IMG/VR virus record: IMGVR_UViG_3300028797_000097
Direction: 5' to 3' (one strand)
Length of the DNA: 64,000 bases
DNA from: a virus
Lineage: Duplodnaviria; Heunggongvirae; Uroviricota; Caudoviricetes
Shown here: positions 20,033-44,968 of the stretch, one piece after another
How the letters are laid out: each line of letters starts with the position of its first letter
Position numbering within the stretch: position 1 is the stretch's first letter
Translations under genes and position numbers: made by a program
The notes under the pieces: generated by a model
Told to the model about the DNA's origin: nothing
Databases searched by the model: none
The model's input: the letters and a program-made list of their open reading frames with translations, nothing else

Positions 20033-21412
20033 ATGACTGATATTGAATTTGAACAAATAATTATTAAGACAATTTATGCAAATCCTGAAGTTTCTGGTAA
20101 GATAATTCCAGAACTTGATACTGGTTGGTTCACAAATGTTGACCACAAATACATCGTTAATGCCATTTTGGAATATAATTCTAAGTTTTCTGCAGTTCCT
20201 AATGCGATTGAAGTTAAAAGACTTTTGTCTGATCAGAGAACAGTAGATGAATTCGAAAAGTGCATGTCTATTAACGATGCAGATGTTAATACACCATATA
20301 TTCTTGATGAAATTCAGAATTTCATTAGAAAACGTTTAGGTAGACAAGTATGTATGGATTATAACGAATATTGTTCTACAGGTAAGTCTAAAGGTAGTTT
20401 TGCTGATGAAATGGCTTATGCTGAAACATTTACGTTTGATACCAAGGTTGGTTTCTCATTCTTCGAAGAACCAGAAGTAATCTTTAATGACATTATTACT
20501 AATGAAAGATTATATCCTACTGGTTGTAGAGCAATCGATGAAATGATTGGTGGTGGTTTACATCCTAAGTCTATTTCTTTGATTATGGCTCCTACCAACG
20601 TTGGTAAAACTTTGTTTATGTGTTCTATCGCATCTGCATTATTACTTGCAGGTTTGAGAGTTCTTTATGTTTCATTCGAAGACTCTGAAGTTAAGATTGG
20701 TCAAAGAATCATGCAGAATTTGTTTGATATTAACCAAACAGAACTTAGAGCTTTGTCTAAGGATGCATATAAGAAGCTTTGGATGAAGAATACACAACAG
20801 ATTGGTCATAATAAGCTTGTTATTAAGGAATATTCAGAAGGTTGTATTAATGCACTTGCATTGAAGGCATTGATTAGAGAACTTAGAGACAAGCGTGGTT
20901 TCGTTCCTGATGTATTGATTGTTGACTATATCGGATGTATGATTCCTAATGGACGACCAAATGCAAATGAAAACGATAACTCCAAGTTAAGAGAAATTTG
21001 TGCTCAGGTTAGAAGTATTGGTATGGAAATGGATATTCCAGTTCTTTCTGCAGCACAGTCTAACAGAGGTGGTTATGGTAAGGGTGAAATTGGACTTGAT
21101 GATGCAGCTGACTCTTTCGGTCAGACAATGAAGGCAGACGTTATCTTTGGTGTTACTCAGTCTCCAGAACTTAAGGAAGGAAGTATGTATCTGGTTAAGC
21201 TTCTGAAGACCAGATATGGTCAACCAAAGTGTCCATTAGCTACGATTGGTGTCGATATTGGTAAACAGCGTATTTTTGACTTGAAGACATTTAATAATGC
21301 TGCAGTTCCAACACAAGGTGCCAATATATTTAATCAACCACAAGAGCAACAATCTGTTTCTGCTTCTAATATTGAAGTAACACAGAATAATTTAAACACT
21401 TTTGAATTTTAA
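20033..21412 (+). CDS. DnaB-family replicative helicase (T4 gp41-like)
   Basis: Walker A MAPTNVGKT, Walker B LIVDYIGCM and the H4 block AAQSNRGGYGK. Confidence 0.8.
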   Translation: MTDIEFEQIIIKTIYANPEVSGKIIPELDTGWFTNVDHKYIVNAILEYNSKFSAVPNAIEVKRLLSDQRTVDEFEKCMSINDADVNTPYILDEIQNFIRKRLGRQVCMDYNEYCSTGKSKGSFADEMAYAETFTFDTKVGFSFFEEPEVIFNDIITNERLYPTGCRAIDEMIGGGLHPKSISLIMAPTNVGKTLFMCSIASALLLAGLRVLYVSFEDSEVKIGQRIMQNLFDINQTELRALSKDAYKKLWMKNTQQIGHNKLVIKEYSEGCINALALKALIRELRDKRGFVPDVLIVDYIGCMIPNGRPNANENDNSKLREICAQVRSIGMEMDIPVLSAAQSNRGGYGKGEIGLDDAADSFGQTMKADVIFGVTQSPELKEGSMYLVKLLKTRYGQPKCPLATIGVDIGKQRIFDLKTFNNAAVPTQGANIFNQPQEQQSVSASNIEVTQNNLNTFEF

Positions 21413-21424
21413 TGAAGGTAACTT

Positions 21425-21805
21425 ATGATAAACGTATCAGACTTATCAGTAAATGAGGAAGTAACAGAATCTGAGAGCAAAGATTCTTTTTACAAGCGAC
21501 TTAAAGCCGCTGGTATAGACTTTGACGACATCGATTCTGATTCCAGATTACCTAAATATATGATTAAGGTAATCAAGAATGAACCCAAGGAATATAATAA
21601 GTTCAATAATGTTCTTTATAAGCTTAATAAGGATAAGATTGTTACTATTGTCGATTCTATGGCCTATTTGGTCGAGGATTGGTTTGAACCCAATATCTTG
21701 ATTAAGTGTTTAGACGAAATGAACTATTATTCCCTTATGAACGGGTTAAAAAAGAAGTATTTAGTAGATAGAAGTTCATCTGATTTAGAAAATTTCTTTG
21801 TCTAA
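21425..21805 (+). CDS. Hypothetical protein (126 aa)
   Basis: ORF between the helicase and the loader-like gene. Confidence 0.4.
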   Translation: MINVSDLSVNEEVTESESKDSFYKRLKAAGIDFDDIDSDSRLPKYMIKVIKNEPKEYNKFNNVLYKLNKDKIVTIVDSMAYLVEDWFEPNILIKCLDEMNYYSLMNGLKKKYLVDRSSSDLENFFV

Positions 21806-22439
21806 TATGGTTGATAAATATCAAATTTATATGCTGTATAAAACCGTTAAGAAAATGTGGAATGCAAAACGGTTTAATACAGCAGTTTTTAACGATTTTT
21901 TTGATGATACTTTAGAGAACTATCTAATTTCTCAGTATATACATGAAAGTCCTAGAGTAGAATATATGGCAAATTACGGAATTAAGCTCGTAAATGAGAT
22001 TAATTGCGGTTTAATTGATGTTGAACATTGGTTAATGTATGTCATGATGAAGTGTCTTTGTGACAAAAAATGTCCCGAAATGCCCGAAATAAATTCTATA
22101 AATAAATTAAAGGACAACATGATTTTCAAAAAACGTCCTATTATAGATTCTCAAATCAAGCTTATTCAGAGTTTAATTGCTGAGAAAGGTTCTGGTTTGA
22201 ATGAATTTATGGACACAAGATTCTCTTTGTATGATCTGGACGCGAATCAAGAAAATCAAGCCTACAAAATGTATAGTATAAGCCAGTTGGATCCTGAGTT
22301 TTACATCCAGGGTTTTAAGGCAGGGAAGTTTAAAATAGATATGGACAAGATTAAGAGTATTGATTACAAAAGATTTATAATGTTTACAAAGATGATATTA
22401 AAATTAAATCAAGAAATATCAGATAAAAATGTAAACTGA
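21798..22439 (+). CDS. gp59-like helicase loading protein (putative)
   Basis: 213 aa against 217 aa for T4 gp59. It lies directly upstream of gene 32 as in T4. The N-terminus YQIYMLYKTVKK resembles gp59 YKLYLMIKQH. Confidence 0.4.
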   Translation: MSNMVDKYQIYMLYKTVKKMWNAKRFNTAVFNDFFDDTLENYLISQYIHESPRVEYMANYGIKLVNEINCGLIDVEHWLMYVMMKCLCDKKCPEMPEINSINKLKDNMIFKKRPIIDSQIKLIQSLIAEKGSGLNEFMDTRFSLYDLDANQENQAYKMYSISQLDPEFYIQGFKAGKFKIDMDKIKSIDYKRFIMFTKMILKLNQEISDKNVN

Positions 22440-22521: not shown

Positions 22522-23589
22522 ATGCCAATAAAGAGAAATAACTTGAACGCACTTTATAGTGCAATGGATAACCTTAACATCGGTAAGAAAGACAACAAGC
22601 AGAAGTCATACGAAATCGAAGGCTTATTTAAGCCAAAGATGGGTGCTGACGGTAAGTTTACTGTTGTTCTTAGATTCCTTCCAGCACACCCAGACGAGGA
22701 AATTCCTTGGGTAGAAAACCGTTCTCACATGTTCCAGCTTTCTAATGGTGCATGGTTCGGTTGTGACTGTGCTAAGAAGTGGAATGAACCATGTCCGATT
22801 TGTGATTATAACGCAAAGATTTGGAATAAGTATGGTAGAACCGATGAAGCTCGTTCCCGTGTAAAGGATAAGTGGAAGCCAAAGTTCTATTCTAACGTTT
22901 ATATCGTTAAGAATCCGAATGCTCCAGAAACAGAAGGTCGTGTTTATCGTCTTGAATATGGTCGTGCAATCATGAAGATGATTCAAGATGCAATGGCTGA
23001 TAAGGATGATGCCGAACTTGGTGTAATTCCAGGTATTAATCCGTTCTCCTGGTGGGGTCCGAACGATAAGGCAGTTCTTGCTGGTGATGATAAGGCTGGT
23101 GCAAACTTTGTTTGGGAAGGCGTTAAGGGTTCTAACGGTCCTAACTACTCTAGCTCTCACTTTAGCAATCCTCGTAGAATGTGCAAGCTTGGTCAGGATG
23201 GTAAGCTCGTCGAAATGACTGATGCAGAACTTGATGTCGTTGAATCTCAGCTCTTCACATTGAAGGATATTGAAAAGCAGAAGGATCAGCTCCGTTCTTA
23301 CGAAGACATTCTTAAGTTCTACAAGACCAAGAGTGGTGAAGATTTGTTTGCAGAATTTGAAGATGGAACTGATTATACTGCAACTGTCAATACAGGTAAG
23401 ACTGTAGAAGCTGATGATGACGATATGTTTGAATCAACTCCGAAGAAGACTGCAGAAGTTCCAATGGAAAAGGAAGTTCCTACTGAACCGCTTTTCGAAC
23501 CAGAATTTGAAGCAACAAAGCCAACAACTTCTAGTGTCGAAGCAGCGGAAGATGAAGAAGACTTCTTTGCAAGACTTGCAAATGGTTAA
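22522..23589 (+). CDS. gp32 single-stranded DNA-binding protein
   Basis: LRFLPAHPDEE, a zinc site (H...CDC...CPIC) and YIVKNPNAPETEGRVYRLEYGRAIMKMIQDAM aligning with T4 gp32 [31 protein letters not shown]. It has an acidic C-terminal tail. Confidence 0.9.
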   Translation: MPIKRNNLNALYSAMDNLNIGKKDNKQKSYEIEGLFKPKMGADGKFTVVLRFLPAHPDEEIPWVENRSHMFQLSNGAWFGCDCAKKWNEPCPICDYNAKIWNKYGRTDEARSRVKDKWKPKFYSNVYIVKNPNAPETEGRVYRLEYGRAIMKMIQDAMADKDDAELGVIPGINPFSWWGPNDKAVLAGDDKAGANFVWEGVKGSNGPNYSSSHFSNPRRMCKLGQDGKLVEMTDAELDVVESQLFTLKDIEKQKDQLRSYEDILKFYKTKSGEDLFAEFEDGTDYTATVNTGKTVEADDDDMFESTPKKTAEVPMEKEVPTEPLFEPEFEATKPTTSSVEAAEDEEDFFARLANG

Positions 23590-24799: not shown

Positions 24800-25948
24800 A
24801 TGGCAGTTAATGAAGATAAAAAATTATCAGATTATGAACTAAAGACTTTGAGAGAGCTTCAACAGTCTAGCAATACAGCATATGTTCCAGCATTTACTGA
24901 AACAGAAAACTATAAATTTGATTCTAAAGAATTAAATGGACAAGTTTTACAGGCTGGAACTAATGTAACTATTGATAATAATAACGTAATTCGTGCTACA
25001 GATACAAAATTAAAAAGTAGTGATAATATTTCTGTTACATCAGATAATAAATTAGTATATACTGGTCCTCAAGGAGAAGGAACAGATCTTGAAGAAGATA
25101 GTACAAATTTATCAATTGGAAGACAATCAGATGGTAAATATAAAGTAAATCTTAATCTTGGCTATGGTTCAGAAGTAGCACAAGTTCATAGCGGTGCAAC
25201 AACTTATAATTGTACTTCTACATTTTTTACTTCTTCAGATGGCGGTAAATCAATAAAAGGTAATTTTGCAGGATTTGTAAATAATGCCATAACATTTGGT
25301 AGAGACCCAAATGAAGGTAATGTTCCAAATAGTAACCTTAATCTTGTTATTAGTGAAGATATTTCTGTGCAATATTGGAATGGTGGTTCAACAGATAGAT
25401 GGATTTTAGCTACTCCAGATGATGTATTATCATTTAAAAAAGTAAATGGAACATATCCACCTTATGCAAGTCGTGTTCGTGGTGATTATTATTCTCAGCT
25501 TATTTTTAATATGCCAAATATTGCTGCATTAACTTTACATACATGGTGGCTTCAACATGTAACTCATAGAGAGAATATTTTTGTTCAAGTTAATATGGGT
25601 GAAAGAATGCATGCATTATATATTTTTAATGGTATTGGCGATGATAATGAAGGTGCAAATTTTTATTTCTATCATAATGGATTAGTATATAAAAAAGAAA
25701 ATGTAAGTAAAGGAACTTTTGTTAATATTGCTAATATAGTTAACTGGAAATTATATACTGATTTATCTGGGTATGGAATTGAAAATGGTGCAGGCAACTC
25801 AAGACTAGTTAATTCATTACCTTTTACAACAAACACTAGAGGTGATGGTCAGGATGAATGGCTGATTTGCACAGTTCAAAGATTTTATTGTATACATGAA
25901 ACAGTTAATAATAAACATAATTATTATTTTATTGAATCTATGTATTAA
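24800..25948 (+). CDS. Tail fibre / receptor-binding-like protein, paralog 1
   Basis: Shares an N-terminal module (AGTNVTIDNNNVIRATDT...DNISVTSDNKLVYTG) with the next two genes and with the long fibre at 53190. The C-terminus is variable. Confidence 0.5.
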   Translation: MAVNEDKKLSDYELKTLRELQQSSNTAYVPAFTETENYKFDSKELNGQVLQAGTNVTIDNNNVIRATDTKLKSSDNISVTSDNKLVYTGPQGEGTDLEEDSTNLSIGRQSDGKYKVNLNLGYGSEVAQVHSGATTYNCTSTFFTSSDGGKSIKGNFAGFVNNAITFGRDPNEGNVPNSNLNLVISEDISVQYWNGGSTDRWILATPDDVLSFKKVNGTYPPYASRVRGDYYSQLIFNMPNIAALTLHTWWLQHVTHRENIFVQVNMGERMHALYIFNGIGDDNEGANFYFYHNGLVYKKENVSKGTFVNIANIVNWKLYTDLSGYGIENGAGNSRLVNSLPFTTNTRGDGQDEWLICTVQRFYCIHETVNNKHNYYFIESMY

Positions 25949-25957
25949 TGAGGATTT

Positions 25958-27091
25958 ATGGGAAAAATTAAAAGAAAGAAATTGTCATCATTTGAAACTA
26001 AAACACTATCTGAATTAAAAGAAATGGATGATAGAGGTAATAGCGTTTATATCCCATATATTCAACCTATTGACAATAACTATAAGCATGAAATTTCAGA
26101 ATGTGCAGAAAAATTAACTGCTGGTGAAAATATTCAGATAACTAACGAAGGGAGAGTAAACGCTACTGACACCCGTTATGTTGCTGGCGATAATATTGAA
26201 ATTAGTTCTGATGGAAAAGTGTCTTATGTAGGTGATGCTCCACAAACATATGCAACAGGAAGAGGATTAAGATTAACAAATAATACTAATATTTTAGCAT
26301 TAAACCTAGAAACAGATGGTGGGTCAACGTTTACATCGCAATATGGTTCAAAATTATCGCCTGTTACATTTAAAAATAATTACACATTAGAATTAGCTGG
26401 AAATGCAATGGATTCACTTTTTGTTCAAGTTGCAGATAGTGATAGAACCGACGGTTATAAAGTAATATGTTTAGATAATGATGGAATTACATTAAGAACT
26501 TCTTTAACTGCTACTGATACTAAAAAATATTATTGCACAAATGGTACTACTCGTGCTTGGTATAAATCCGCACAACAACCGTCAGGATATACAAAAATAA
26601 GAACATCTGATTATACTCATTTTGCTATTGATGTAGGAAATATTGGTCTATTATCAATGTCTGCTTTATTTTTACAAAGTCATAATAATAGAGAAACAAT
26701 TATTAATATGTTAAATAGAACAAGTGATAAAGAACCTGATTTAATACTTGTAAATGATACGTCATATAAGGCTGATGCATTTATATATGAACAAGGTTTA
26801 TTATCAGGTGCTACTAATATAAGTTTAAATACATCATCTGCAAATTATGCAACTATTGCAAAATTTGAAAACTCACAAAATAAATGGGTATCGTCATTTA
26901 CTCCTAATTATTATATTAAGACTGATGGAACGACACGTGTTGCATTACCGCCATTTTGTGGAAATGTTTTATCAATGGTAAATGGTAGTACATATACTGG
27001 CTTATTTTCTACACTTAGATTTATTCCAGCTGTTTCACTAGATACAACAAATTCAAAAACAACTATATCAATGGTATCAATGGAGTATTAA
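25958..27091 (+). CDS. Tail fibre / receptor-binding-like protein, paralog 2
   Basis: AGENIQITNEGRVNATDTRYVAGDNIEISSDGKVSYVGD. Divergent C-terminus. Confidence 0.5.
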   Translation: MGKIKRKKLSSFETKTLSELKEMDDRGNSVYIPYIQPIDNNYKHEISECAEKLTAGENIQITNEGRVNATDTRYVAGDNIEISSDGKVSYVGDAPQTYATGRGLRLTNNTNILALNLETDGGSTFTSQYGSKLSPVTFKNNYTLELAGNAMDSLFVQVADSDRTDGYKVICLDNDGITLRTSLTATDTKKYYCTNGTTRAWYKSAQQPSGYTKIRTSDYTHFAIDVGNIGLLSMSALFLQSHNNRETIINMLNRTSDKEPDLILVNDTSYKADAFIYEQGLLSGATNISLNTSSANYATIAKFENSQNKWVSSFTPNYYIKTDGTTRVALPPFCGNVLSMVNGSTYTGLFSTLRFIPAVSLDTTNSKTTISMVSMEY

Positions 27092-27094
27092 ATT

Positions 27095-28633
27095 ATGGCA
27101 GGATGGAAACAAAATAATAAAAATGAATTAGTAAAATTAAATAGTTATAGTAAAACTGATACTACGGATGCCGAGATACCTGTTGTTATTCCAGATGCAG
27201 GTAAAAATGCAAGATTTAAAGTTACTGATTTAGCTCCTGTATATAAAGATGATGAAAATAATTGTCTTAAAATCGAAGATGGTGTTATTTCTAAAACAGA
27301 CACAACATATCAGTCAGGTGATGATGTTATAAAAGTTAATACTGTTGGTAATGAAAATATTATTAGTTGTGATGGTTTTGGTGGTAAAAAATATGTTGCA
27401 GGAACAGCAATCCAAGTAACTGAAACTACTAATACTACCACTAATAAAGCAACATTTTCAACGCTTAAATCCTCAGAAGATAAATTGATGGGTAATATCC
27501 AAACCTATCAAAAACATCAACCTACTTACAGAAAAAATAGTAAAACAGAATTTGCTGGTTTTGCCAATTTATATGGTGTTATTGGAGACCCATGGTGGTC
27601 AGAATCATCACCAAATTCATATACAACAATTGCTAGAATTTCTGGTGGCAGAATTCATTGTTATAATAGTCAAATACAAGAAAAAACATATTATATAAAT
27701 GGTGATACTTCATCAGATGGATTATATAAATTTAATCAATATGCAATACATATGGCACGTGTTGGTGGTATATATGTAGATTATGCTTTTTTAACAAATC
27801 ATTTTAATCGTGAATTATATATTTCAAGAACATATACTCAATTTGATGCTAATCAAGGATCAAATTATGGTTGTAAATTTTATATAACAGAAAATTCTGG
27901 AAGTACTCGTAGACTTAGAGTTATAATTTATTCATGCGGTTATATTTGTGAAGGTTATTCAACTTCAAGCAATCCAGAAATTTGTTTACAAGATATTTGT
28001 TATTGGAATTGGTCTAATGGCCAAAATGGAAATAGTTTTAATTATATATTAAGACCAATAGATTCTTCATATAAGTTAAGAGATTATGGTTATAATGCAG
28101 TTTCTGTTCCAATAGAAAATGATGGCGGTGGACATGCTTTTATTACTGGAGGGATATGGCAGCTTGATAAATATTATGATTCAAATAATATACCATGTAC
28201 AGTAATGAATGATACATGGACAGAATTTGACTATACATGGTCATATAGTCAAACTGTTGGTTGGCGGCCTCAAATAGTACCAGGAACAGGTGTATCATAT
28301 AGCGCGCCAAAAACTATAACACAATATTCTAATTTTTATAAAACAGCAGATCCTCGTTATAATTATTGGCAAACAGCAAATAAAATTAGAACAAAATATT
28401 GTTATAATACAGATGTTGCAACAATAATGACCCTATCTCCTGATAATGCAAATTATGGTAAATATTCAACAATTTTACATGAAGGTGAAGTTCATAGAAA
28501 TTTTAATGAAGTATGTCCAATCTCATATGATGAATATTTTTCTAGTTTTAAATTTATGGTTAATGGATATGGCGTAACAACAGTAAATGGTAAAGATTAT
28601 GATACTGTTTATTTAGTTGATATGAGAAACTAA
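27095..28633 (+). CDS. Tail fibre / receptor-binding-like protein, paralog 3
   Basis: N-terminal module DGVISKTDTTYQSGDDVIKVNTVGNENIISCDG. Trp/Tyr-rich C-terminal domain. Confidence 0.45.
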   Translation: MAGWKQNNKNELVKLNSYSKTDTTDAEIPVVIPDAGKNARFKVTDLAPVYKDDENNCLKIEDGVISKTDTTYQSGDDVIKVNTVGNENIISCDGFGGKKYVAGTAIQVTETTNTTTNKATFSTLKSSEDKLMGNIQTYQKHQPTYRKNSKTEFAGFANLYGVIGDPWWSESSPNSYTTIARISGGRIHCYNSQIQEKTYYINGDTSSDGLYKFNQYAIHMARVGGIYVDYAFLTNHFNRELYISRTYTQFDANQGSNYGCKFYITENSGSTRRLRVIIYSCGYICEGYSTSSNPEICLQDICYWNWSNGQNGNSFNYILRPIDSSYKLRDYGYNAVSVPIENDGGGHAFITGGIWQLDKYYDSNNIPCTVMNDTWTEFDYTWSYSQTVGWRPQIVPGTGVSYSAPKTITQYSNFYKTADPRYNYWQTANKIRTKYCYNTDVATIMTLSPDNANYGKYSTILHEGEVHRNFNEVCPISYDEYFSSFKFMVNGYGVTTVNGKDYDTVYLVDMRN

Positions 28634-29313
28634 TGAATATAGTAGTAATTAATAAAAATCAAGAAGATAAAATTAATTTAATTGAAGACAAGATACATGA
28701 GTTTAATCATGTATTTTGTTTTGATAGATATAAACCAGATACAACAGTTCCAGCTGTTTATAATACAGAAGGAACTGGATTCTTGGCAGGTAAATGTAGA
28801 GACATCGGTGCAGCATATTTTGACTATAAAGGAGATTTCTTATTTCTTGATGGCGATAAAGTTCCAGAAGGCGATTTGAATATTATTCCTGAAATCGGTG
28901 CTGCCTGTGTTTTACTCGGTGTTGGTAAAAATGATCATCGTCAATTTATGCAGCAAGAAAATATAACGAAAGAATATAATTGGGATGAAGGTTTCGATTG
29001 TAAAAATCCGTTAAATTTTGTATATAGTTGTGGTATTTATCTTTCTCAGAAAGCAGTAGACTTAATGAGGAAAATAAACGGCGGTAGGATATTTCATCCT
29101 TGTTTTGATGGAACTTGGGGTGATGAAGACCGTTGGATTGGTGATGTTTTAGGTTTTTATAAAATTCCGATTTTTTATACTACAAAGGTAACACTGTCTG
29201 GACATATTACTTCTACTAGAGATGACCCGATGTCAGAAAAAGCACAGAATTTACACATAAACATGATAAAACGAATTCATTTGAGACAGGAAAAGTTGGG
29301 ATTACAGTTCTAA
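28633..29313 (+). CDS. GT-A fold glycosyltransferase (DXD plus WGxED motifs)
   Basis: FLFLDGDK and TWGDEDRWIGDVLG. Confidence 0.45.
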   Translation: MNIVVINKNQEDKINLIEDKIHEFNHVFCFDRYKPDTTVPAVYNTEGTGFLAGKCRDIGAAYFDYKGDFLFLDGDKVPEGDLNIIPEIGAACVLLGVGKNDHRQFMQQENITKEYNWDEGFDCKNPLNFVYSCGIYLSQKAVDLMRKINGGRIFHPCFDGTWGDEDRWIGDVLGFYKIPIFYTTKVTLSGHITSTRDDPMSEKAQNLHINMIKRIHLRQEKLGLQF

Positions 29314-29350
29314 TTTTTTATAAATAATATAAAATTATTAAGGAGAAAAC

Positions 29351-30637
29351 ATGAATTTAAGTGAAGCAAGAGATATTCTCGGTAAATGTGGATATTCATT
29401 TTTGAAAGAATCTACAGAATTAACCAGAGATATTATGCTTAAATATGCTAAGCAATTAGCACAGCAAAATGATAAAATTGGTATTATCAAGGGAAAAAAC
29501 CCAGAAGATGGTGATTTTGATATAATCATTTATTATAATAATGATAAGATTAAAGTTGCATCATATAAAGGTTATGAAAATGAAGTTTATGTAAGGGAAT
29601 TCAAGAGTTCTTTATCTGGAATGCCAGCAAAGAAAGTTGAAACCTTAGAAGATTTACGTTCATATATTGATTCTACATTGAAATATATGGAAAAATATAA
29701 AGAAGACAACAATAATCAATACAAAACAAGTGTCGAAGATATTGAAAAAGATAAGGAAGAATGGGCTAACAACATGGATCAAAACGAGTCATTAAAACTT
29801 AAAAAAGCATTACAGTTCCTTGCTGAATGCGGTTATACAATTAGTAAAAATACAAGAATTGATGAAATGTCTCGTGCATCTGACCGTGTTCTTGGTCATG
29901 ATTCTGCAGAAAACTTGCTTTATATGCTTGCTGACTGGAAGAAACAGTATGACAGAACTGGTAAGAATGCTACATTAGGTCAATTTGCCAAATTTGTTCA
30001 AGATAATGGCATTAGTTGGGACTTAATTAGTGGTCTCAGCTTACCAGGATTACCAAGAACAGAACCTCCTACACGTTCATCTAGGAGAATTGATTTGGAA
30101 GCTATTATTGCTTCTTTACAAGGTCAGCTTGGACAAGATGTTAGCGATGTTCGTAACCGTGTTGATTTAGGTAAGGATGATTACGATAGATTAATCGACA
30201 CCTTCTGGGATTATTATGAAAAGAACCGTGATGGTGAAGATGTTTCTGCACTTGTTGATTCTGAAAATTTCCAGGCACTCATTAGATTGTTTGCTGAAGA
30301 ACCAGAAACTGCACAGGAAGTCTTTGGTAGAAACTATGACAAGGCTAATAGCAAGTTACAGAGATTTATTAATCCTGATTCCGCAGCTGCTTTGATTGGC
30401 GAATTCTGGGATTGGTATTATGCTAAGAAGGCTGGTCGTGACATTGACTTCGATCCAGAAAAGGCAGAAAAGATTGCAGACTTGCTTGAAACCCCGAATG
30501 CTAAGGATGAAATTTTCGGCGGTAACGGTTCTTACTATACTGTTCTTAGAACAATTAGTAACATTGTTGGTAGACAGCTTGGTCAGAGAGATGCAGACTT
30601 CGATTACGATTCTTTGAATGGTGATTTGAGCCTCTAA
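29351..30637 (+). CDS. Member of the N-terminal-module family (two copies of the module), 428 aa
   Basis: Strong RBS aaggag. MNLSEARDILGKCGYSFLKE at the N-terminus and a second copy LKLKKALQFLAECGYTISKNT at about residue 145. Confidence 0.5.
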   Translation: MNLSEARDILGKCGYSFLKESTELTRDIMLKYAKQLAQQNDKIGIIKGKNPEDGDFDIIIYYNNDKIKVASYKGYENEVYVREFKSSLSGMPAKKVETLEDLRSYIDSTLKYMEKYKEDNNNQYKTSVEDIEKDKEEWANNMDQNESLKLKKALQFLAECGYTISKNTRIDEMSRASDRVLGHDSAENLLYMLADWKKQYDRTGKNATLGQFAKFVQDNGISWDLISGLSLPGLPRTEPPTRSSRRIDLEAIIASLQGQLGQDVSDVRNRVDLGKDDYDRLIDTFWDYYEKNRDGEDVSALVDSENFQALIRLFAEEPETAQEVFGRNYDKANSKLQRFINPDSAAALIGEFWDWYYAKKAGRDIDFDPEKAEKIADLLETPNAKDEIFGGNGSYYTVLRTISNIVGRQLGQRDADFDYDSLNGDLSL

Positions 30638-30662
30638 TATATCGTTTCAGACAACATTAAAT

Positions 30663-30699
30663 AAAAAGGGTTGACGGCAGTCACCCTTTTTGCTATATT
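30663..30699 (+). promoter_or_regulatory. Terminator hairpin overlapping a canonical sigma70 promoter TTGACG-N17-TATATT
   Basis: Stem gggt(t)gac/gtcaccc with a T-run. The -35 is at 30671-30676 and the -10 at 30694-30699. It drives the NfeD-like/flotillin pair. Confidence 0.6.
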
Positions 30700-30726
30700 T
30701 AGGAAAAACTTACAAGGAGATATAAA

Positions 30727-31218
30727 ATGATAGTAATCGCTTGGACGATTGTTGGTTTAACTGCACTTTTCATTATCTGCAGCTGCATAAAGAGTTGCGT
30801 CAGAATGGCAACAATGGAACGCTTTAAAAACGTTCCCATTCAGACACCTACCTTAATTGCAGATAAGAATAAGATTATTCAGTCATTATTTGATGATGAC
30901 GCTGAAAAGTTTTTCAAATATAAAGGTATAACATTCTGGTATTATAAGGATTCAAAGGATTACTTTGAAAAGCAGAGTTTTAGTGTTGCTGATGTAAAGA
31001 ATAAGATTGCACAGAAGTATGATGAACTCAAACAAGAACATCCAGGAATTACAGATTTTTTTGTTTCCATGACAAAACAAAATAATTATTTGACATGGGA
31101 ATTTGATCCGATTGACTTAAACTCTTATGTTCCGCCAAAGTCAACTAAGGATATTTGTATCGATGAGCTTAACAAATTAATAGAAAACAATGAAATAAAG
31201 GAAAAACATGACATCTAA
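30727..31218 (+). CDS. NfeD/YuaF-like membrane protein partner of flotillin
   Basis: N-terminal TM helix followed by a soluble domain of about 130 aa. It is immediately upstream of and overlapping the flotillin gene, as in the host yuaF-floT / yqiJ-yqiK operons. Confidence 0.4.
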   Translation: MIVIAWTIVGLTALFIICSCIKSCVRMATMERFKNVPIQTPTLIADKNKIIQSLFDDDAEKFFKYKGITFWYYKDSKDYFEKQSFSVADVKNKIAQKYDELKQEHPGITDFFVSMTKQNNYLTWEFDPIDLNSYVPPKSTKDICIDELNKLIENNEIKEKHDI

Positions 31219-32806
31219 TATGATCTACCCAATACTTATCGGAATTGCAGTAATTGCTTTAAGTATTCTCTTTTTTGCGTCTTATATCAAAGCCGCACCA
31301 GATGAAGTTAAAATCATCTCTGGTTTCCGACAACTAAGGACAATTATCGGACATTCAGGATTTAGAATTCCGTTCCTTGAGCAAGTCGATACTTTAAGCT
31401 TAAAGCTTATTCCAATCGATGTTAAGACCTCCGGTATTCCAACGTCAGATTATATTAATATCGCAGTTGATGCAGTCGTTCAGGTCAAAATTTCTGATGA
31501 AACTGCTGATATTAAGGTTGCTGCACAGAACTTCTTAAATAAGAATCCAGATGAAATTAAGAAGATGATTAGTGAAGTTCTTGAAGCAAACATGAGAGAG
31601 ATTGTTGGTCAAATGGAACTTGTCAAGCTTGTTAATGACAGACAACAGGTTTCTAAGAAGGTTCTCGAAAATGCTTCTCCAGACTTAAAGAAACTCGGTA
31701 TTGTTATTCAAACATTTAATATTCAGAACTTCTCTGATTCAGCAAAGGTTATTGAAAACCTCGGTGTTGACAAGGCAGTTGCAATTCAGAAAGCAGCAGC
31801 AATTTCTAGGGCCAATGCAGAAAGAGACGTTAAGATTGCTCAGGCAGAAGCAGCTAAGGAAGCAAACGATGCACAGGTTGCATCTAACCTCGAAATCGCA
31901 CAGAAGCAAAACGACTTAGAAGTTAAGAAGGCTGACCTTAAGAGAATTTCCGATAGCAAGAAGGCTGAAGCTGATGCCGCTTACGAAATTCAGAAGCAAG
32001 AACAGCAAAAGACCATTAACATTGCAGCTGCAGCAGCTGAAGTTGCAAAGCAGGAAAAACAGATTGAAATTCGTGAAAGAATGGTAGCTGTTAGACAGAA
32101 GGAACTCGAAGCTGAAATCCAGAAGAAGGCAGAAGCAGAAAAGCAAGCACAAATTCAGAAGTCTGATGCTGACCTTTATAGACAACAGAAGGAAGCTGAA
32201 GCAGCACTCTTCACACAGAAGCAACAGGCTGAAGCTATTAAGGCTAAGGCTGAAGCTGATAAGCAAAAAGCATTCGCTGAAGCTGCAGCAACTAAGGCTA
32301 AGGGTGAAGCAGAAGCTGATGCTGTAAAGGCTAAGGGTCTTGCAGAAGCAGCAGCACTTGACCAGAAGGCTGAAGCTATGAAGAAGTATGGTGATGCAGC
32401 AAGACAGGAAATGCAGCTCAGAACTATTGAAAAGTATTTCGAACAGTTACCAGCTATTGCAAGTGCCGTTGCAAAACCGATGGAAAAGATTGGCAATATC
32501 AATATGTATGGTGAAAGCGGTACAGCTAAGCTCACTGGCGATATTACCAAGACACTTACACAAGTTTCTAGTGGTTTAACTGATTCTCTTGGTATTGATC
32601 TTAAGACTGTTCTCGGTTCTATGTTCGGTGCACATCTTGCTGGACTCGAAAAGAAACCGTCGCAGGTCCCTGTTGAAGTTGCAAAGAACGATCCAGCAGT
32701 TCCAGCTACCCCAGCTCAGGCTACTCCAGTAGAATCTCCGGTTCAAATGTCTGAATCTGATATTGAACAGGCAGCAGCAGCATTTCTTAGAAAGCGTAAG
32801 CACTAA
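31208..32806 (+). CDS. Flotillin-like SPFH protein (FloT/YqiK-like, 532 aa)
   Basis: N-terminal TM segment, SPFH domain and a long A/E/K-rich flotillin-type coiled-coil (AEAEKQAQIQK...KAEADKQKAFAEAAATKAKGEAEADAVKAKG). Confidence 0.85.
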   Translation: MTSNMIYPILIGIAVIALSILFFASYIKAAPDEVKIISGFRQLRTIIGHSGFRIPFLEQVDTLSLKLIPIDVKTSGIPTSDYINIAVDAVVQVKISDETADIKVAAQNFLNKNPDEIKKMISEVLEANMREIVGQMELVKLVNDRQQVSKKVLENASPDLKKLGIVIQTFNIQNFSDSAKVIENLGVDKAVAIQKAAAISRANAERDVKIAQAEAAKEANDAQVASNLEIAQKQNDLEVKKADLKRISDSKKAEADAAYEIQKQEQQKTINIAAAAAEVAKQEKQIEIRERMVAVRQKELEAEIQKKAEAEKQAQIQKSDADLYRQQKEAEAALFTQKQQAEAIKAKAEADKQKAFAEAAATKAKGEAEADAVKAKGLAEAAALDQKAEAMKKYGDAARQEMQLRTIEKYFEQLPAIASAVAKPMEKIGNINMYGESGTAKLTGDITKTLTQVSSGLTDSLGIDLKTVLGSMFGAHLAGLEKKPSQVPVEVAKNDPAVPATPAQATPVESPVQMSESDIEQAAAAFLRKRKH

Positions 32807-32919
32807 TAAGAAATAGATTAAATAAAAAGATCAGACTTATGTCTGGTCTTTTTGTTGTATTTTTAAAAAATTAAAATATTTTTACATTTAATAAATAAGA
32901 AAATAGAAAAATACTATAT

Positions 32920-33795
32920 TTGTTATTGATTATGAGAACAATCCAGACAATACAAAATCAATATGATAATATCATGAAGCCATTAGTATGGTCGGATAAA
33001 GTTGCAAAGAATTTTTTGAATTGTATAAAAAATCCAATTGTAGTAGAAAAGAAAGACATGATACCGCAATGGAAGATTTGTACTGTTAGCGACACTAAAA
33101 GACGAACTGAAAGTATTGGTTCTACTGATGTTTTAATTTTAGATTATGATGATCCGAATTATAGCATAAAGGAATTTGAAGATAGTTTTAGAGAATATTT
33201 CTATGTATTACATACTTCACATTCTTATGATGGAACAAACCAGAAGTTCAGAGTATTTTTGTTTCTTGATAAAGAATATGATATAAATAGAATGTTTTAT
33301 AAATGTTTTAATCAAGCATTTAGTCCATATCATTTTCTTGTAAATTATTTTCCACATGCAGATAAGGCATCATTCGTTAGAGCACAGTTCTTTAAGGTTC
33401 CTTGTGTAAAATATAAAGGTGCACCTTATTATTACAGTTGTCATAACGGTAAGTTATTTGACCCTGCTAGTGCAATCGGGTTTGAATTTAGAATGGCTTA
33501 TGAATATTGTGTAGAGAAACAAGAAGAACATCTTAAGCAACTTGAAAAACGAGCAAAATGGTATCGCAAGATGCATGGTTCAATCGATTTAACGAATGCA
33601 AAACAATATATAAATGAAAAGATTGAAACATGTGAAGCTGGTGGTAGACATATGCAGATTTTAGGTCTGGCATGTTGGTTTAAGAAGATTGGCGGAACGT
33701 TTAAAGAATTTGAGGAAATAATGCCATCATGGGCTGATAAAGGTTTCCATAAACAGATGGAACATATTAGACATGAATGGGATAGATTTAGGTAA
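32920..33795 (+). CDS. Archaeo-eukaryotic-type primase (Prim-Pol, BT4734-like) with a C-terminal PriCT-1 domain
   Basis: hhhDhD motif VLILDYDD, sxH motif YVLHTSHSYDG.NQKFRVFLFL and a PriCT-1-like GGRHMQILGLACWFKKIGGTFKEFEEIM. Confidence 0.55.
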   Translation: MLLIMRTIQTIQNQYDNIMKPLVWSDKVAKNFLNCIKNPIVVEKKDMIPQWKICTVSDTKRRTESIGSTDVLILDYDDPNYSIKEFEDSFREYFYVLHTSHSYDGTNQKFRVFLFLDKEYDINRMFYKCFNQAFSPYHFLVNYFPHADKASFVRAQFFKVPCVKYKGAPYYYSCHNGKLFDPASAIGFEFRMAYEYCVEKQEEHLKQLEKRAKWYRKMHGSIDLTNAKQYINEKIETCEAGGRHMQILGLACWFKKIGGTFKEFEEIMPSWADKGFHKQMEHIRHEWDRFR

Positions 33796-33797
33796 GT

Positions 33798-34583
33798 ATG
33801 AAAGACGTATATCAACAATTATGGGAAGCATTCAGTGATATATATTTCGAAGAAGTTCCGCACAAATATACAGATAGTTACGGAACGAAATATACATCAG
33901 TTACTACATTTGTCGGTCAACTTGAAGTAGAAAAAGACTGGGACTTAATTGCAGAAAAAGCAATTAAAAAGAAAGACAGTCAATATAAGGGAATGACTGT
34001 GGAACAAGTCAGAGCAGCCTGGAAAGCTTCAGGCGACTATGCTTGTCAGTTAGGAACTTATGTCCATAGTGTTATGGAACTTGGTTGGCAAAATAAGGAA
34101 TTTTATCCTGATGAGAATGTTCTTGCAAAATATCCTGGAATGAAGGAAGATTTTGAATATAGAAAACAAAGATGTAAGAAAGCTTTGTCTATTTTGAAAG
34201 AACGTTATATTCCCATCAAGAATGAAACAATTGTTTATGACCGTGACTGGCAGTTGTGTGGAACTATTGACTTCTTATGTTATAATAAAGTAAAGAATTG
34301 TATTGCAATCCTTGACTGGAAGACAAACAAGAAATGGGATTTTAACAATAGGTATCAGAAACTTAGAGCTCCGTTCGATATGATGGACGATTGTAATATT
34401 AACCATTATGAGTTACAGTTAAATACCTATAAGGCAATTTTAGAGAAACATACGGATATTAAAGTTGGTGAAATGTTATTGGTTCAAATTCCAAATAAAG
34501 AAAAGGAATTAATCGAAACACATCAATGTAAGGATTGGCAAAAAGTTTTAGTTCCGTATTTAGACAGTTTACACAAAAAATAA
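33798..34583 (+). CDS. PD-(D/E)XK exonuclease (YqaJ / lambda-Exo / Cas4-like)
   Basis: GTIDFLCY...IAILDWKTNKK (D...D/E-x-K) followed by a QxxxY motif (YELQLNTYKAILEK). Confidence 0.55.
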   Translation: MKDVYQQLWEAFSDIYFEEVPHKYTDSYGTKYTSVTTFVGQLEVEKDWDLIAEKAIKKKDSQYKGMTVEQVRAAWKASGDYACQLGTYVHSVMELGWQNKEFYPDENVLAKYPGMKEDFEYRKQRCKKALSILKERYIPIKNETIVYDRDWQLCGTIDFLCYNKVKNCIAILDWKTNKKWDFNNRYQKLRAPFDMMDDCNINHYELQLNTYKAILEKHTDIKVGEMLLVQIPNKEKELIETHQCKDWQKVLVPYLDSLHKK

Positions 34584-34616
34584 ATTATATATAAAAAACA
34601 ATATAAAGGTGAAAAA

Positions 34617-35108
34617 ATGAAAGTATCAGAAGTACAGATTACAAATTTCCAGCTCCAGCAACTTTTTGAGGAATTTAATTCCCGTTTGACTGTAGATGGT
34701 ATTAATGCTAAGTATTCTTGGTTCATGTATAAGAATAGCGAAGCAATGGCTCCATTGTATAGTCAGTTGATGAATGAACTTTATGATGAACGTAAGGAAC
34801 CAGATTTTCCGGCTATGTTCTCTGAAGGTCAGCTTCTTATCGAAAAGTATCGTGATCGCGATGCTGAAGGTAAGGAAATTAACGATAAGGCTGGTAATGC
34901 TCAGTTTACTCAGCATAGAGAAGAATATGTCAAAGAATATCAGGCTTTGAGAGAAAAGTATAAGGAATTATTCGAAAAGATTGACAAGAAACCCGAAGTA
35001 AACCGTGAAATTTATATGAAAAATGTAAGTTTTATGGCTACTCAGTTGGAATTGTCAGAATTCCCGAATAATACGAAGCCATATATTATTGGTCTTCTCG
35101 GCTATTAA
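34617..35108 (+). CDS. Hypothetical protein (163 aa)
   Basis: ORF with RBS; no recognisable motifs. Confidence 0.4.
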   Translation: MKVSEVQITNFQLQQLFEEFNSRLTVDGINAKYSWFMYKNSEAMAPLYSQLMNELYDERKEPDFPAMFSEGQLLIEKYRDRDAEGKEINDKAGNAQFTQHREEYVKEYQALREKYKELFEKIDKKPEVNREIYMKNVSFMATQLELSEFPNNTKPYIIGLLGY

Positions 35109-35157
35109 TTTAAAATAACATTTAAAAAGAAACCGCTTTTAACAAGCGGTTTTTTAT

Positions 35158-35165
35158 TATAAATA
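35158..35165 (+). promoter_or_regulatory. T4-type late promoter TATAAATA, 7 nt before ATG 35173, preceded by terminator aaccgctt/aagcggtt
   Basis: Exact motif. The upstream hairpin plus T-run at 35131-35156. Confidence 0.45.
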
Positions 35166-35172
35166 ATGTAAG

Positions 35173-35967
35173 ATGATAACTAATAAAACTGTATTTAATG
35201 TTAATCGTGTAGCAATACCATTCTCTAAGAAAGAATTAGAATCGGTAATCAATCAGAATGTAGTAAATGGGTATATTTCTACTACATATGATAATTTAAT
35301 ACAAACTTTGGAAGATATTTCCCGTTCTAAGGAATATCCAGTTGTATTAAATCCGAATGAAATTTTTACTTCATCTAATAATCCGTTAATTAGAAATGAC
35401 GTTTTGATTAGGGTTGAAGGTTTACAATCCTATGGTGAATTCATTAATAATGTTATAAGAGATAGCGAAGATGGTTATTGGACCGATTTTATGACTTATT
35501 CTGAATTATTCAAGGATGAAATCAAGAAAGTCAAAATACTTGCTTATAAGAAGTTTTTGTGGAATTATCATAATATTGATGAATGGTTTACGTCTAAGAA
35601 TATCGGTTTGATTGACGATGATAAGAATATGTTGGTTACTGATTTCCAGACATTTAAGGAAAGAGTTTTATTAACAGATGACTATGAAACCTTTATTGAT
35701 TCTTGTAAAACAGAAGATGTTGCTAACGCTATAAAATATATCATAAAGAAAGGTTGTGAAGTTTTACAAAAATATAAGGTTGAACTGAATAATCATATTG
35801 CGATTGATAATAAAAGACAGACAAATATAATTTTGAAGAATCCAATTATTACAAAGATATTCTTACAGTCTTCTGCTGCATCTCGTTGCAAGAAAGACTG
35901 GCCAAGAATTAAATTTACTACATTGGATAAGAAATCATTTGACACTATTGGTATTTGGGAAGTTTAA
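35173..35967 (+). CDS. Late (structural module) protein, 264 aa
   Basis: First gene after the late promoter; overlaps the next gene. Confidence 0.4.
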   Translation: MITNKTVFNVNRVAIPFSKKELESVINQNVVNGYISTTYDNLIQTLEDISRSKEYPVVLNPNEIFTSSNNPLIRNDVLIRVEGLQSYGEFINNVIRDSEDGYWTDFMTYSELFKDEIKKVKILAYKKFLWNYHNIDEWFTSKNIGLIDDDKNMLVTDFQTFKERVLLTDDYETFIDSCKTEDVANAIKYIIKKGCEVLQKYKVELNNHIAIDNKRQTNIILKNPIITKIFLQSSAASRCKKDWPRIKFTTLDKKSFDTIGIWEV

Positions 35968-37268
35968 TTATGTCATTTAAAAAATCAGAAACTATTACAA
36001 AGGAAGGCGGATATAGAAAGTTTGATTCCGTCGAGGAAATGCAATCAGCTACTAACTGGTTTTTTAAATACATTACTTATAATGATGGAACTACTGAAGA
36101 GTGGACTCCAGGACATTTACCAAATAAAAATAAGAATGATTATCCACCTCCGCTTGGAGAAGTAACTGGAACGATCTTCTTAGATTCTTCTCCTGGTATC
36201 ATTTACATGACCAGTCTTATTGGTGATATTATCATCGATACGAAAGGTCCTGAATTTGTTTCTGAAGATGTTCAGTATGTAGTTATTGATTCTAACAGAA
36301 AGTGTAGCTTTACAATTAATTCTGATACGTTAATTGATGTTTGCCAATTAAGAATAAAATGTGGTGATGACGTTCTTTATGAATGTCTTAGAAAAGAAAC
36401 AGAACATACAATTTCTGAAAGTATTTCTAAACTATCTTATAATAAGACAGGAAATACTTATGTTTTGTCTTTTACATTAGATAAAAGCTATTCAGTTGAT
36501 AAACTTAATGAAGATCAGCTTAAGATTGAAGTCTGGGATATTGCAGCAAATAAAGCTGAATATACAACAGATGGAAAATGGGATTATATAACACTTGATG
36601 ATGATGAGAAAATCCAACATCTTATTATTGATTTTATTGATATTTATCCAAAAAATATGATTGTTTCAAAAAACATTGAAGGAAAAGTATTAGTTAGGGT
36701 TACTAATCCAAATAAGTTTTTATGGGCTTATCAACCGACAGTAAATTTATTTAATGATAGTATTGGTGTTATTGATGAATCAACATTAACATATTATGCA
36801 GATCAGGGAGTATTAACCTTTTATATTACACATATTAATAAGAAAGGAAATATCAATGTTGAAGCATGGATTGATGTTGATAATAATGAAATTAAAGAAT
36901 TTGTAAGAAATGCAACTTATGCTGATGCTACATTAGGACCATTTATATTTGCTGATGAAGGACGTAAGTATAAATTTAATTCTTATACTCCAGAATATCT
37001 TACTGACGAAATATATAAGGCATTTGTAAAATTTACAGAAGATTTCTTGAATACTTCGCAGGAAAGTTTGTCTACTGGAAATGCTGTAAGTACACTTGAA
37101 AAAATTGCTAGAATAAATAATTTTAATGACCCATTCAGAACAGAAACTCCTTTGCTTAGTGAATATGTAAAGCAGTTTAATATTGAAGTAAATCCAAATT
37201 TAAATGAATATGTATATTTCTTGGATGCAGCAAGAACTATAAAGGACAAGGAAACTGATGGAAATTAA
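35955..37268 (+). CDS. Late structural-module protein, 437 aa (baseplate/wedge candidate)
   Basis: Translationally coupled chain of late genes. Confidence 0.4.
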   Translation: MGSLIMSFKKSETITKEGGYRKFDSVEEMQSATNWFFKYITYNDGTTEEWTPGHLPNKNKNDYPPPLGEVTGTIFLDSSPGIIYMTSLIGDIIIDTKGPEFVSEDVQYVVIDSNRKCSFTINSDTLIDVCQLRIKCGDDVLYECLRKETEHTISESISKLSYNKTGNTYVLSFTLDKSYSVDKLNEDQLKIEVWDIAANKAEYTTDGKWDYITLDDDEKIQHLIIDFIDIYPKNMIVSKNIEGKVLVRVTNPNKFLWAYQPTVNLFNDSIGVIDESTLTYYADQGVLTFYITHINKKGNINVEAWIDVDNNEIKEFVRNATYADATLGPFIFADEGRKYKFNSYTPEYLTDEIYKAFVKFTEDFLNTSQESLSTGNAVSTLEKIARINNFNDPFRTETPLLSEYVKQFNIEVNPNLNEYVYFLDAARTIKDKETDGN

Positions 37269-44062: not shown

Positions 44063-44245
44063 ATGCAAAAAACAAAAATTGATATCGTAGTATTTGTAGT
44101 TATTTTTATTTTCGTATTTAGTTTAATGATATTTGGATGTAGTTCTGAAAGTTCTACTTCTCCTGAAGATATGTATCAGAAGTGTATTACTGTTAACGAA
44201 GAAAATCCAGATGCATGTGACCAAGAATTTACAATATATAAATGA
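44063..44245 (+). CDS. Small lipoprotein (60 aa)
   Basis: ATG 44063 lies within the TTG-start ORF listed at 44045. Hydrophobic signal with IFGC, then an acidic Cys-containing mature part. Confidence 0.45.
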   Translation: MQKTKIDIVVFVVIFIFVFSLMIFGCSSESSTSPEDMYQKCITVNEENPDACDQEFTIYK

Positions 44246-44724: not shown

Positions 44725-44915
44725 TTGGAATCTTACTGTTACTATGTGGCATGTCATTTGCATGTTCACCCTTCTTCACTTCTGAATTTTGTAAGGAGAT
44801 AGATTTCTGGAATACTCAGTATTCTAGTTATCATTACAAATATTTTGAAATTTCTCCTAACTGGCTACTCTGGATTAACGGTTATCAAGCGTTTAATTTC
44901 ACGATTCGTTTCTAA
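44712..44915 (+). CDS. Small secreted or lipoprotein-like protein (67 aa)
   Basis: Signal-like N-terminus MQRIIGILLLLCGMSFAC. Confidence 0.3.
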   Translation: MQRIIGILLLLCGMSFACSPFFTSEFCKEIDFWNTQYSSYHYKYFEISPNWLLWINGYQAFNFTIRF

Positions 44916-44938
44916 ATAAAAATTTACAAATTAATTTA

Positions 44939-44968
44939 AACTATGCAAAATTTTGCATAGTTTTTTTT
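44939..44968 (+). terminator. Rho-independent terminator (aactatgcaa/ttgcatagtt) plus T8
   Basis: Perfect 10-bp stem followed by a T-run. Confidence 0.6.

Follow-up and report, generated by a model that had tools for sequence, protein, structure and literature searches.

A divergent stand-alone archaeo-eukaryotic primase beside a PD-(D/E)XK nuclease in the replication module of T4-like phages: a candidate replacement for gp61

The gp41-gp61 primosome of phage T4 is the textbook model of helicase-primase coupling at the replication fork. Primases that belong to the superfamily of archaeo-eukaryotic primases (AEPs) are common in phages, and combinations of an AEP with a DnaB-type helicase are known. 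Here, we describe a putative AEP gene (open reading frame 1, ORF1) and the nuclease gene that follows it (ORF2) in a 64,000-nucleotide stretch of viral DNA, IMG/VR record IMGVR_UViG_3300028797_000097. This whole stretch, hereafter the window, comes from a distant T4-like myovirus with a GC content of about 31%. The reading that we favor, and regard as moderately probable, is that a T4-like clade with genomes of about 400-460 kb carries a RepB'-like AEP-PriCT primase instead of the core primase gp61 in an otherwise T4-type replisome (PolB, clamp loader, gp41, gp32, and UvsX/W/Y).

The closest solved structure is that of RepB' from plasmid RSF1010, a PrimPol-PV1 protein composed of a primase domain and a PriCT-1 bundle (PMC5862659). 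RepB' is a plasmid origin-specific initiator that makes DNA primers (PMC8567376) and acts on the ssiA and ssiB hairpins. ORF1 shares the catalytic domain, the long helix, and the helix bundle of RepB' at a sequence identity of 8-12%; unlike RepB', it is encoded among the clustered replisome genes of a phage, which include those for gp32, PolB, and a DnaB-type helicase. ORF1 presumably does the job of T4 gp61, the primase that teams up with a helicase of the gp41 type, gp32, and a gp59-type loader; in both cases, the gene lies near gp41. However, gp61 consists of a zinc ribbon and a Toprim domain, whereas ORF1 has an AEP fold and a PriCT bundle, matches no zinc-ribbon or Toprim profile, and has no sequence similarity to gp61. 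The AEP domains of the cyanophage S-2L PrimPol (PDB 6zp9) and of NrS-1 belong to long primase-polymerase or primase-helicase fusions. In contrast, ORF1 is a stand-alone protein of 287 amino acids (aa), and its phage has a DnaB-type helicase and, in relatives, a PolB of its own. Rhodothermus phage RM378 is a T4-related myovirus with an AEP primase, as here, but it also has a DnaG-type primase, unlike the sequence read here (PMC4889955). A global survey found AEP and DnaG primases to be alternatives in double-stranded DNA viruses, the sole exception being the far-T4 phage RM378, and superfamily 4 helicases together with an AEP in 19% of cases (PMC4889955). The features of the locus, all on the plus strand, are as follows.

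32821..32856, plus strand: terminator-like hairpin with a T-run, 3' of an SPFH gene
32932..33795, plus strand: ORF1, predicted stand-alone AEP-superfamily primase, 287 aa (PHROGs, homologues, AlphaFold2 model, Foldseek)
32932..33477, plus strand: predicted AEP catalytic alpha/beta domain, aa 1-182
33142..33150, plus strand: AEP motif I, D71-Y-D73, where strand 64-72 ends (alignments, model)
33211..33228, plus strand: motif II region, H94-T-S-H-S-Y99 (alignments)
33244..33252, plus strand: K105-F-R107, where the long strand 106-117 starts (model, alignments)
33361..33363, plus strand: AEP motif III aspartate, D144 (alignments)
33481..33576, plus strand: long tether helix, aa 184-215, linking the catalytic domain to the bundle (model; same arrangement in RepB')
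33592..33786, plus strand: C-terminal PriCT-like helix bundle, aa 221-285 (alignments, model, RepB' match)
33798..34583, plus strand: ORF2, RecB/Cas4-type PD-(D/E)XK nuclease, 261 aa (Pfam, PHROGs, alignment)

The two reading frames listed for this locus were re-found exactly, at 32920-33795 (plus strand, TTG start, 291 aa) and 33798-34583 (plus strand, ATG start, 261 aa). All 49 of 49 ORF1 homologues are approximately 285-288 aa long and start, with the N-terminus MR(T/x)IQ..., at the equivalent of an internal ATG. Because the homologues begin there, the start of ORF1 is most likely the ATG at 32932 (287 aa), and the gene is best placed at 32932-33795 and not from the TTG at 32920. The spacer upstream of this ATG is AT-rich and contains no visible Shine-Dalgarno sequence, and 2 bp separate the ORF1 stop codon from the ORF2 ATG. 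The hairpin at 32821-32856 separates an inserted block, described below, from the AEP-nuclease transcription unit. ORF1, ORF2, and perhaps the following gene (ORF3) look like one transcription unit in this genome, and ORF2 is probably cotranscribed and translationally coupled with ORF1.

Judged from its sequence and its predicted structure, ORF1 is a divergent, stand-alone AEP-superfamily primase with an AEP-PriCT layout closest to that of RepB', as the initial annotation had proposed for the primase in general terms. Its best PHROG match was phrog_9765, "DNA primase" (E 4.8e-12, aa 56-186 of the 291-aa TTG-start translation), and it matched four primase/helicase PHROGs in all; Pfam and NCBIfam gave no significant match. 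The AlphaFold2 model, computed from a 33-sequence alignment (pLDDT 92.2, pTM 0.80), has three parts, namely, an alpha/beta domain (aa 1-182) with the RRM-like catalytic prim-pol fold, a long helix (184-215), and a helical bundle (221-285). When this model was compared with the PDB using Foldseek, the sole significant match was full-length RepB' (E 1e-5, 292 columns). Comparison with viral models (BFVD) yielded 62 matches at E <= 1e-3 (best E 3e-13), nearly all of them phage primase, primase-helicase, VirE-like, PriCT-named, or NrS-1-like proteins.

A profile search of 1.84 billion representative proteins returned 401 ORF1 relatives at E <= 1e-3, most of which are stand-alone proteins of 270-300 aa. 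In some long relatives, the homologue of the ORF1 N-terminus is followed by an NrS-1-type helix bundle and D5_N, AAA_25, or DnaB_C; in others, superfamily 2 helicase modules, with matches below the Pfam cut-off, follow the ORF1-like domain. This domain occupies the slot in which primase-helicase fusions carry the primase domain, which supports the identification of ORF1 as a primase. A sequence bridge to NrS-1 was sought through an NrS-1-like relative (P0179) and rejected, as this protein matched NrS-1 structures in the helix bundle only and not in the AEP domain. Among 50,697 cultured phage records, megablast of 30000-38000 and tblastn of ORF1 (E <= 1e-3) and of the distant relative P0057 gave no match; no cultured phage in this collection carries a close ORF1 homologue, and the family was seen only in metagenomic contigs.

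The catalytic motifs were examined in an alignment of 33 clade members and in one of the wider family (122 sequences, about 20% identity), with residues numbered in the 287-aa ATG-start protein. Motif I (L-I-L-D71-Y-D73, conforming to hhhDhD) is invariant in 33 of 33 clade members; of the 122 wider-family sequences, 109 have D and 13 have E at position 71, and 119 have D at position 73. The motif III (hD) aspartate, D144, is invariant in all 33 clade members and in all 122 members of the wider family. K105-F-R107 is invariant in the clade, and R107, a candidate nucleotide-binding basic residue, is kept in 120 of the 122. This arginine lies upstream of motif III, whereas the motif IV arginine (Rh) of PrimPol-PV1 enzymes is expected downstream, and no equivalent of the RepB' motif IV arginine was mapped in ORF1. 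Downstream of D144, position 150 is K or R in the clade, and K155 is invariant with a hydrophobic residue after it; the wider-family alignment is unstable in this region. Within the motif II region, H94, T95, S98, and Y99 are invariant in the clade (H94-T-S-x-S-Y99). The residues at positions 94/99 in the wider family are Y/H in 62 sequences, H/H in 21, and Y/Y in 17, while the combination H/Y is found in this clade alone. The DxD pair (D71/D73) and D144 are thus confirmed by profile and alignment, whereas the sxH histidine is non-canonical.

Invariant residues of the C-terminal helix bundle are G237-x-R239-H240, G254-G255, W267, and D269. The bundle, which the initial annotation had named PriCT-1, aligns with that of RepB', which is classed as PriCT-1. 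However, the Pfam PriCT_1 model (PF08708) matched 4 of the 33 clade members weakly (best E 0.073), and among the wider relatives PriCT_2 was matched by eight proteins (best E 1e-14) and PriCT_1 by three (best E 0.008). The label "PriCT-type helix bundle" is justified, and the specific assignment to PriCT-1 goes beyond the evidence. Two further labels were not reproduced. The VirE_N model (PF08800), which underlies the description "BT4734-like", matched neither ORF1 (E <= 1) nor the 33 clade members (E <= 10) nor 121 wider relatives (E <= 0.01), and the VirE-like names of some BFVD neighbors reflect fold similarity alone. Similarly, Pfam Prim-Pol (PF09250) had no match in ORF1, the clade members, or the wider relatives.

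The description of the surroundings as an otherwise T4-like replisome gene set was borne out. PHROG matches in the window identified a gp15-like tail sheath stabilizer, TerL with a homing endonuclease upstream, UvsW, UvsX, gp41, gp32, a MazG-like NTP pyrophosphohydrolase, NrdD/NrdG, UvsY, and an RNA ligase; gp43, gp44/62, and gp45 lie outside the window. The genes closest to the question of priming are as follows.

20033..21412, plus strand: gp41-type DnaB-family replicative helicase (phrog_19, E 2.6e-77)
21425..22439, plus strand: pair of small conserved ORFs (126 aa and 213 aa) that separates gp41 from gp32
22522..23589, plus strand: gp32-type single-stranded DNA-binding protein (PHROGs, relatives)

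The gp41 of the window is 28.8% identical to gp41 of cultured T4-likes. The 213-aa ORF (21798-22439) occupies the position of T4 gene 59; it has no match in PDB, Pfam, or PHROGs, and "gp59 position" is a label of location only. The window was compared with 4 + 62 related metagenomic loci, whose genes include Pfam matches to UvsW_N, T4_UVSX_C, gp32, and DnaB_C. In all loci with enough upstream sequence, the order UvsX, gp41, 126-aa ORF, approximately 210-aa ORF, gp32, ..., AEP was kept. In distant relatives, whose AEP is 45-53% identical, the order is gp43/PolB, UvsX, gp41, ..., gp32, a DHH-family protein, AEP, with gp44, gp62, and gp47 or an RNase H/FEN-type 5'-3' exonuclease at most 10 kb from the AEP; gp43, gp44, gp62, and gp47 were identified by phmmer, and Pfam matched DNA_pol_B and 5_3_exonuc_N. 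The AEP is 45-100% identical across the clade, and its divergence tracks that of gp41. A gp41 homologue search for AEP-less sister clades returned only in-clade proteins (at least 43% identity).

Contigs with the clade AEP or gp41 repeatedly end at 385-464 kb, and one is 678,800 bp long. As contigs reach 385-464 kb, the clade is one of very large phages, and these lengths suggest genomes of about 400-460 kb. Sample names suggest ruminant gut studies as the source of most of the DNA, and the clade is apparently from ruminant guts. One NCBI protein of the clade (P0455), from a metagenome-assembled genome (MAG), is labeled "Clostridiales bacterium" and probably represents a phage contig binned as a bacterium.

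Several side observations were made in the replisome clusters of these relatives. A DHH phosphoesterase (Pfam DHH, RecJ/NrnA family, about 290-308 aa) lies directly between gp32 and the AEP in three loci (L024, 9133-10020; L045, 9085-10020; L199, 9066-9992), while the DHH gene of the window is at 14067-14942, 18 kb upstream of the AEP; a functional link between the two proteins is possible. Within a few kb downstream of the AEP, the most distant relatives have a PolyA_pol/CCA-adding-type nucleotidyltransferase (L199, 12325-13710) and an RNase H/FEN-family 5'-3' exonuclease (L199, 16956-17849), the latter consistent with removal of Okazaki primers. An IS605-type OrfB/TnpB gene (Cas12f1-like_TNB) lies between UvsX and gp41 on the minus strand of L001 (3681-4892) and is absent from three collinear relatives. 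Several distant relatives (L049-L063; for example, L052 1719-2855, 4320-5792, and 19336-20121) have UvsX, gp41, and the nuclease in two or three overlapping pieces, and UvsX is broken at one same site, with a 23-nt overlap, in five loci. Stop-codon recoding was rejected as the cause, since the pieces lie in different overlapping frames and thus reflect frameshifts and not in-frame stops; the candidate causes are indels from assembly, programmed frameshifting, and a true division of the genes.

Gene 61 of T4 is located immediately downstream of gene 41, a position that the two small ORFs take in this clade. These (126 aa and 213 aa, 339 aa together) were considered as a split gp61 and rejected, as they have no zinc-ribbon or Toprim features. 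We then searched for a gp61/DnaG-type primase with tblastn (T4 gp61), a gp61 hidden Markov model (HMM), and the T7 primase domain; none was found in the window or in the 111 sources examined (1.63 Mb), which comprised the window, both of its flanks of about 10 kb, all AEP loci, RNA-ligase loci, and homing-endonuclease loci. The HMM was built from six diverse gp61 proteins and run without filters (--max) on 1.02 Mb and then on a further 0.6 Mb, the latter contributed by RNA ligase relatives and homing endonuclease paralogues and likewise without gp61. The other large ORFs of the window matched no primase PHROG, and precomputed Pfam annotations of flanking genes in relatives included neither Toprim nor zf-CHC2. 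The 20-kb replisome clusters of relatives (PolB, UvsX, gp41, gp32, clamp loader, and FEN) contained no DnaG-type gene. A gp61 alignment was also run against IMG/VR to look for contigs shared with the clade; the 80 best-scoring loci all belonged to ordinary T4-likes and are uninformative on this point. One weak match of the gp61 HMM (E 0.054), at 18218-18616 in the window, was rejected because it is a C2H2 zinc finger and not a primase zinc ribbon. This small C2H2-type protein (CxxC...HxxxxH) is conserved between UvsW and UvsX and is also found at 2486-2851 of L002. The search for gp61 in the rest of the genome was thus answered in part: no canonical gp61 appeared in the window, its flanks, or the related loci, and motifs I and III of the AEP were confirmed, while about 20% of the genome was covered.

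The identification of the adjacent gene, ORF2, as a PD-(D/E)XK nuclease was upheld by matches to Pfam PDDEXK_1 (29.6 bits against a gathering score of 22, E 8.5e-7) and to phrog_298, "exonuclease" (E 9e-28). In a 36-sequence alignment, the invariant residues are H22xY24, G86-T-x-x-H90-x-x-x-E94, D158, D173-W-K175, and Q207-x-x-x-Y211. ORF2 therefore has the D...(D/E)xK core together with the GxxxHxxxE and QxxxY motifs of PDDEXK_1, which it shares with the RecB/AddB/Cas4 nucleases. Unlike these, it has no Cas4 iron-sulfur cysteines and no helicase fusion, and it is not a T4 core gene. The alignment contains no invariant cysteines, and the ORF2 sequence has no N-terminal C with a C-terminal CxxC...C; as there are no conserved cysteines, ORF2 is not Cas4 proper. 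No match to YqaJ/lambda-exonuclease (PF09588) was obtained, PDDEXK_1 being the sole Pfam match of ORF2 at E <= 1. Hence, of the description "YqaJ/Cas4-like", the RecB/Cas4-type motifs stand, and neither the Cas4 cluster nor the YqaJ relationship does. Among catalogued phages, relatives of ORF2 occur in Flavobacterium, Bacteroides, Prevotella, and crAss-like phages, where they carry exonuclease annotations, and in 634-642-kb uncultured phages; classical T4-likes do not have them. Their distribution, combined with the absence of a visible Shine-Dalgarno sequence upstream of ORF1, suggests a Bacteroidota host for the clade.

The initial annotation had also treated the AEP and the nuclease as a joint module. 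They are adjacent here, and the nuclease directly follows the AEP in about 28 of 58 evaluable loci; in the same set, it lies 669 bp downstream in 2, on the opposite strand in 7, and 3.7-9 kb from the AEP in 13, and it is missing from the sequence at hand in 9. Since this linkage is loose, the conserved unit is the helicase, the single-stranded DNA-binding protein, and the AEP, not the AEP and the nuclease. The remaining neighbors are as follows.

24800..32806, plus strand: variable inserted block of seven ORFs, including a membrane protein and SPFH/flotillin (locus comparison)
34617..35108, plus strand: ORF3, 163 aa, no assigned function, located after the nuclease in closer relatives only

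ORF3 had no match in Pfam, PHROGs, PADLOC, NCBIfam, or PDB. Only in this genome does the 8-kb block at 24800-32806 stand between the MazG-like gene and the AEP; it is lacking in some relatives and incomplete in others, which have the 428-aa and 163-aa ORFs or else the 163-aa ORF together with SPFH. It includes a small membrane protein (30727-31218) followed by SPFH/flotillin (31208-32806; Band_7 E 7e-23, Flot E 1.5e-10), and the region looks like an insertion hot spot with a phage-encoded flotillin pair.

Farther from the AEP, in the window region 3953-5846, the TerL-like ORF encodes just 306 aa, and a 335-aa homing endonuclease ORF overlaps its start; in relatives (L001-L004, about 18.7-19.7 kb), the TerL-like ORF has 304-306 aa and matches Terminase_6N only. 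The nuclease half of the terminase may be encoded separately. In the window region 44242-47660, an ORF of 160 aa for an HNH-type homing endonuclease is located upstream of NrdD. The match of NrdD (823 aa) to its PHROG profile is in two parts that leave out about aa 408-478, where the reductase may carry an insertion.

The fixed place of the AEP in a T4-type replisome cluster, together with the absence of gp61 from the sequence searched, makes replacement of the primase the likeliest reading. Under this reading, the primase half of the gp41-gp61 primosome would have been exchanged naturally for a non-orthologous primase, which we hold to be reasonably probable. That the clade lacks gp61 altogether and uses the AEP as its replicative primase is, in our estimate, fairly likely. 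The conserved residues and the homologous enzymes make catalytic competence of ORF1 rather probable, and we give similar credence to its working with the gp41-type helicase, its presumed partner. In the proposed mechanism, the acidic triad D71, D73, and D144 of the RRM-type catalytic domain would bind two metal ions, and the long tether helix would connect this domain to the PriCT-type bundle. By holding the initiating nucleotide and the template, the bundle would allow the first dinucleotide to be made and then lengthened. This role is modeled on RepB', pRN1 ORF904, and the large primase subunit PriL, and it is proposed because RepB' needs both of its domains for the formation and extension of the first dinucleotide (PMC8567376). 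ORF1 would then act as the replisome primase of the clade in place of DnaG-type gp61, with the gp41-type helicase, the gp59-position protein, and gp32. By analogy with RepB' and NrS-1, it might make DNA or mixed primers. ORF2 most likely would process DNA ends or flaps for recombination-dependent replication and would not be an obligate partner of the primase.

A number of points weigh against replacement of gp61 by the AEP. The gp61 scan covered about 84 kb (window plus flanks; about 20%) of a genome of about 385-464 kb, so that gp61 may lie elsewhere, and the gp61 HMM is weakly sensitive to very divergent DnaG primases (T7 primase scored E 0.01 in a single-sequence database). The T4 core genome includes gp61 (PMC2993671), DnaG-type primases are reported from T4-like ("group 2") jumbo phages (PMC7824862), and RM378 has both types (PMC4889955). 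As for the protein itself, no curated Pfam AEP model matches ORF1, its family profile found no PDB sequence at E <= 10 (hmmsearch), and the motif II histidine is replaced by tyrosine at position 99, with an invariant histidine five residues upstream (H94). Finally, the adjacency of the AEP and the nuclease, seen in about half of the relatives, fails in the more distant ones. Several of these points would fit an additional, specialized primase-polymerase in a phage that encodes a gp61-type primase elsewhere. The AEP would then have a secondary task, for example, initiation at specific origins or hairpins (as RepB' does), repriming after damage (PrimPol), or priming with the nuclease during recombination-dependent replication. 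The two-primase precedent of RM378, the DnaG-type primases usual in T4-like jumbo phages, the core status of gp61, and the roughly 80% of the genome that is unread all favor this explanation, as do the origin-specific, DNA-priming nature of RepB' and the nuclease adjoining the AEP in closer relatives. We nevertheless consider it unlikely, though to be taken seriously, since no DnaG-type gene is present in the 20-kb replisome clusters of relatives and the AEP is fixed by gp41-gp32 throughout the clade at 45-100% identity with invariant catalytic residues. Moreover, the two primase types together represent one case in the global survey (PMC4889955).

Two other explanations concern the nature of the gene. 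The AEP and the nuclease could be mobile or accessory cargo (a moron, a defense or anti-defense module, or the replication module of an integrated element) outside the phage's own replication, given that mobile elements are the typical setting of PrimPol-PV1-type AEP-PriCT proteins (PMC5862659), that the AEP gene adjoins the insertion hot spot at 24800-32806, and that homing endonucleases and IS605-type TnpB occur nearby in the clade. However, the position of the AEP after gp32 is constant in more than 60 loci from many samples while the neighboring insert varies, its divergence follows that of gp41, and no integrase or repeat boundaries were seen. PADLOC had no match for ORF1 or ORF3 and a weak generic PD-(D/E)XK match for ORF2 (E 0.007). 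Cargo is therefore very improbable. An AEP-fold protein without catalysis, serving only in DNA binding or scaffolding, would account for the tyrosine at the canonical motif II histidine position and for the lack of a curated AEP profile match, but the three acidic metal ligands and R107 are invariant, as is H94. In addition, a relaxed motif II residue (His/Gln/Tyr) is documented in PrimPol-PV1 enzymes, including RepB' and the active PolpTN2 (PMC5862659), and we regard a dead enzyme as the least probable of these explanations.

The general reading, an AEP primase with a PD-(D/E)XK nuclease in a T4-like replication module, is confirmed. The AEP family of about 287 aa has 401 relatives and no Pfam or NCBIfam model, and its members are consequently annotated as "hypothetical" in metagenomes and MAGs. 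If gp61 is encoded elsewhere in the genome, the clade would be a second RM378-like case of two primases, which would be less notable. If the clade is truly without gp61, an AEP has been fitted onto a gp41-type helicase. Replacement of gp61 would then add the T4 lineage to the known cases in which replication parts of bacterial and archaeal type are mixed, and it would provide a natural test case of how far helicase-primase coupling depends on the type of primase.

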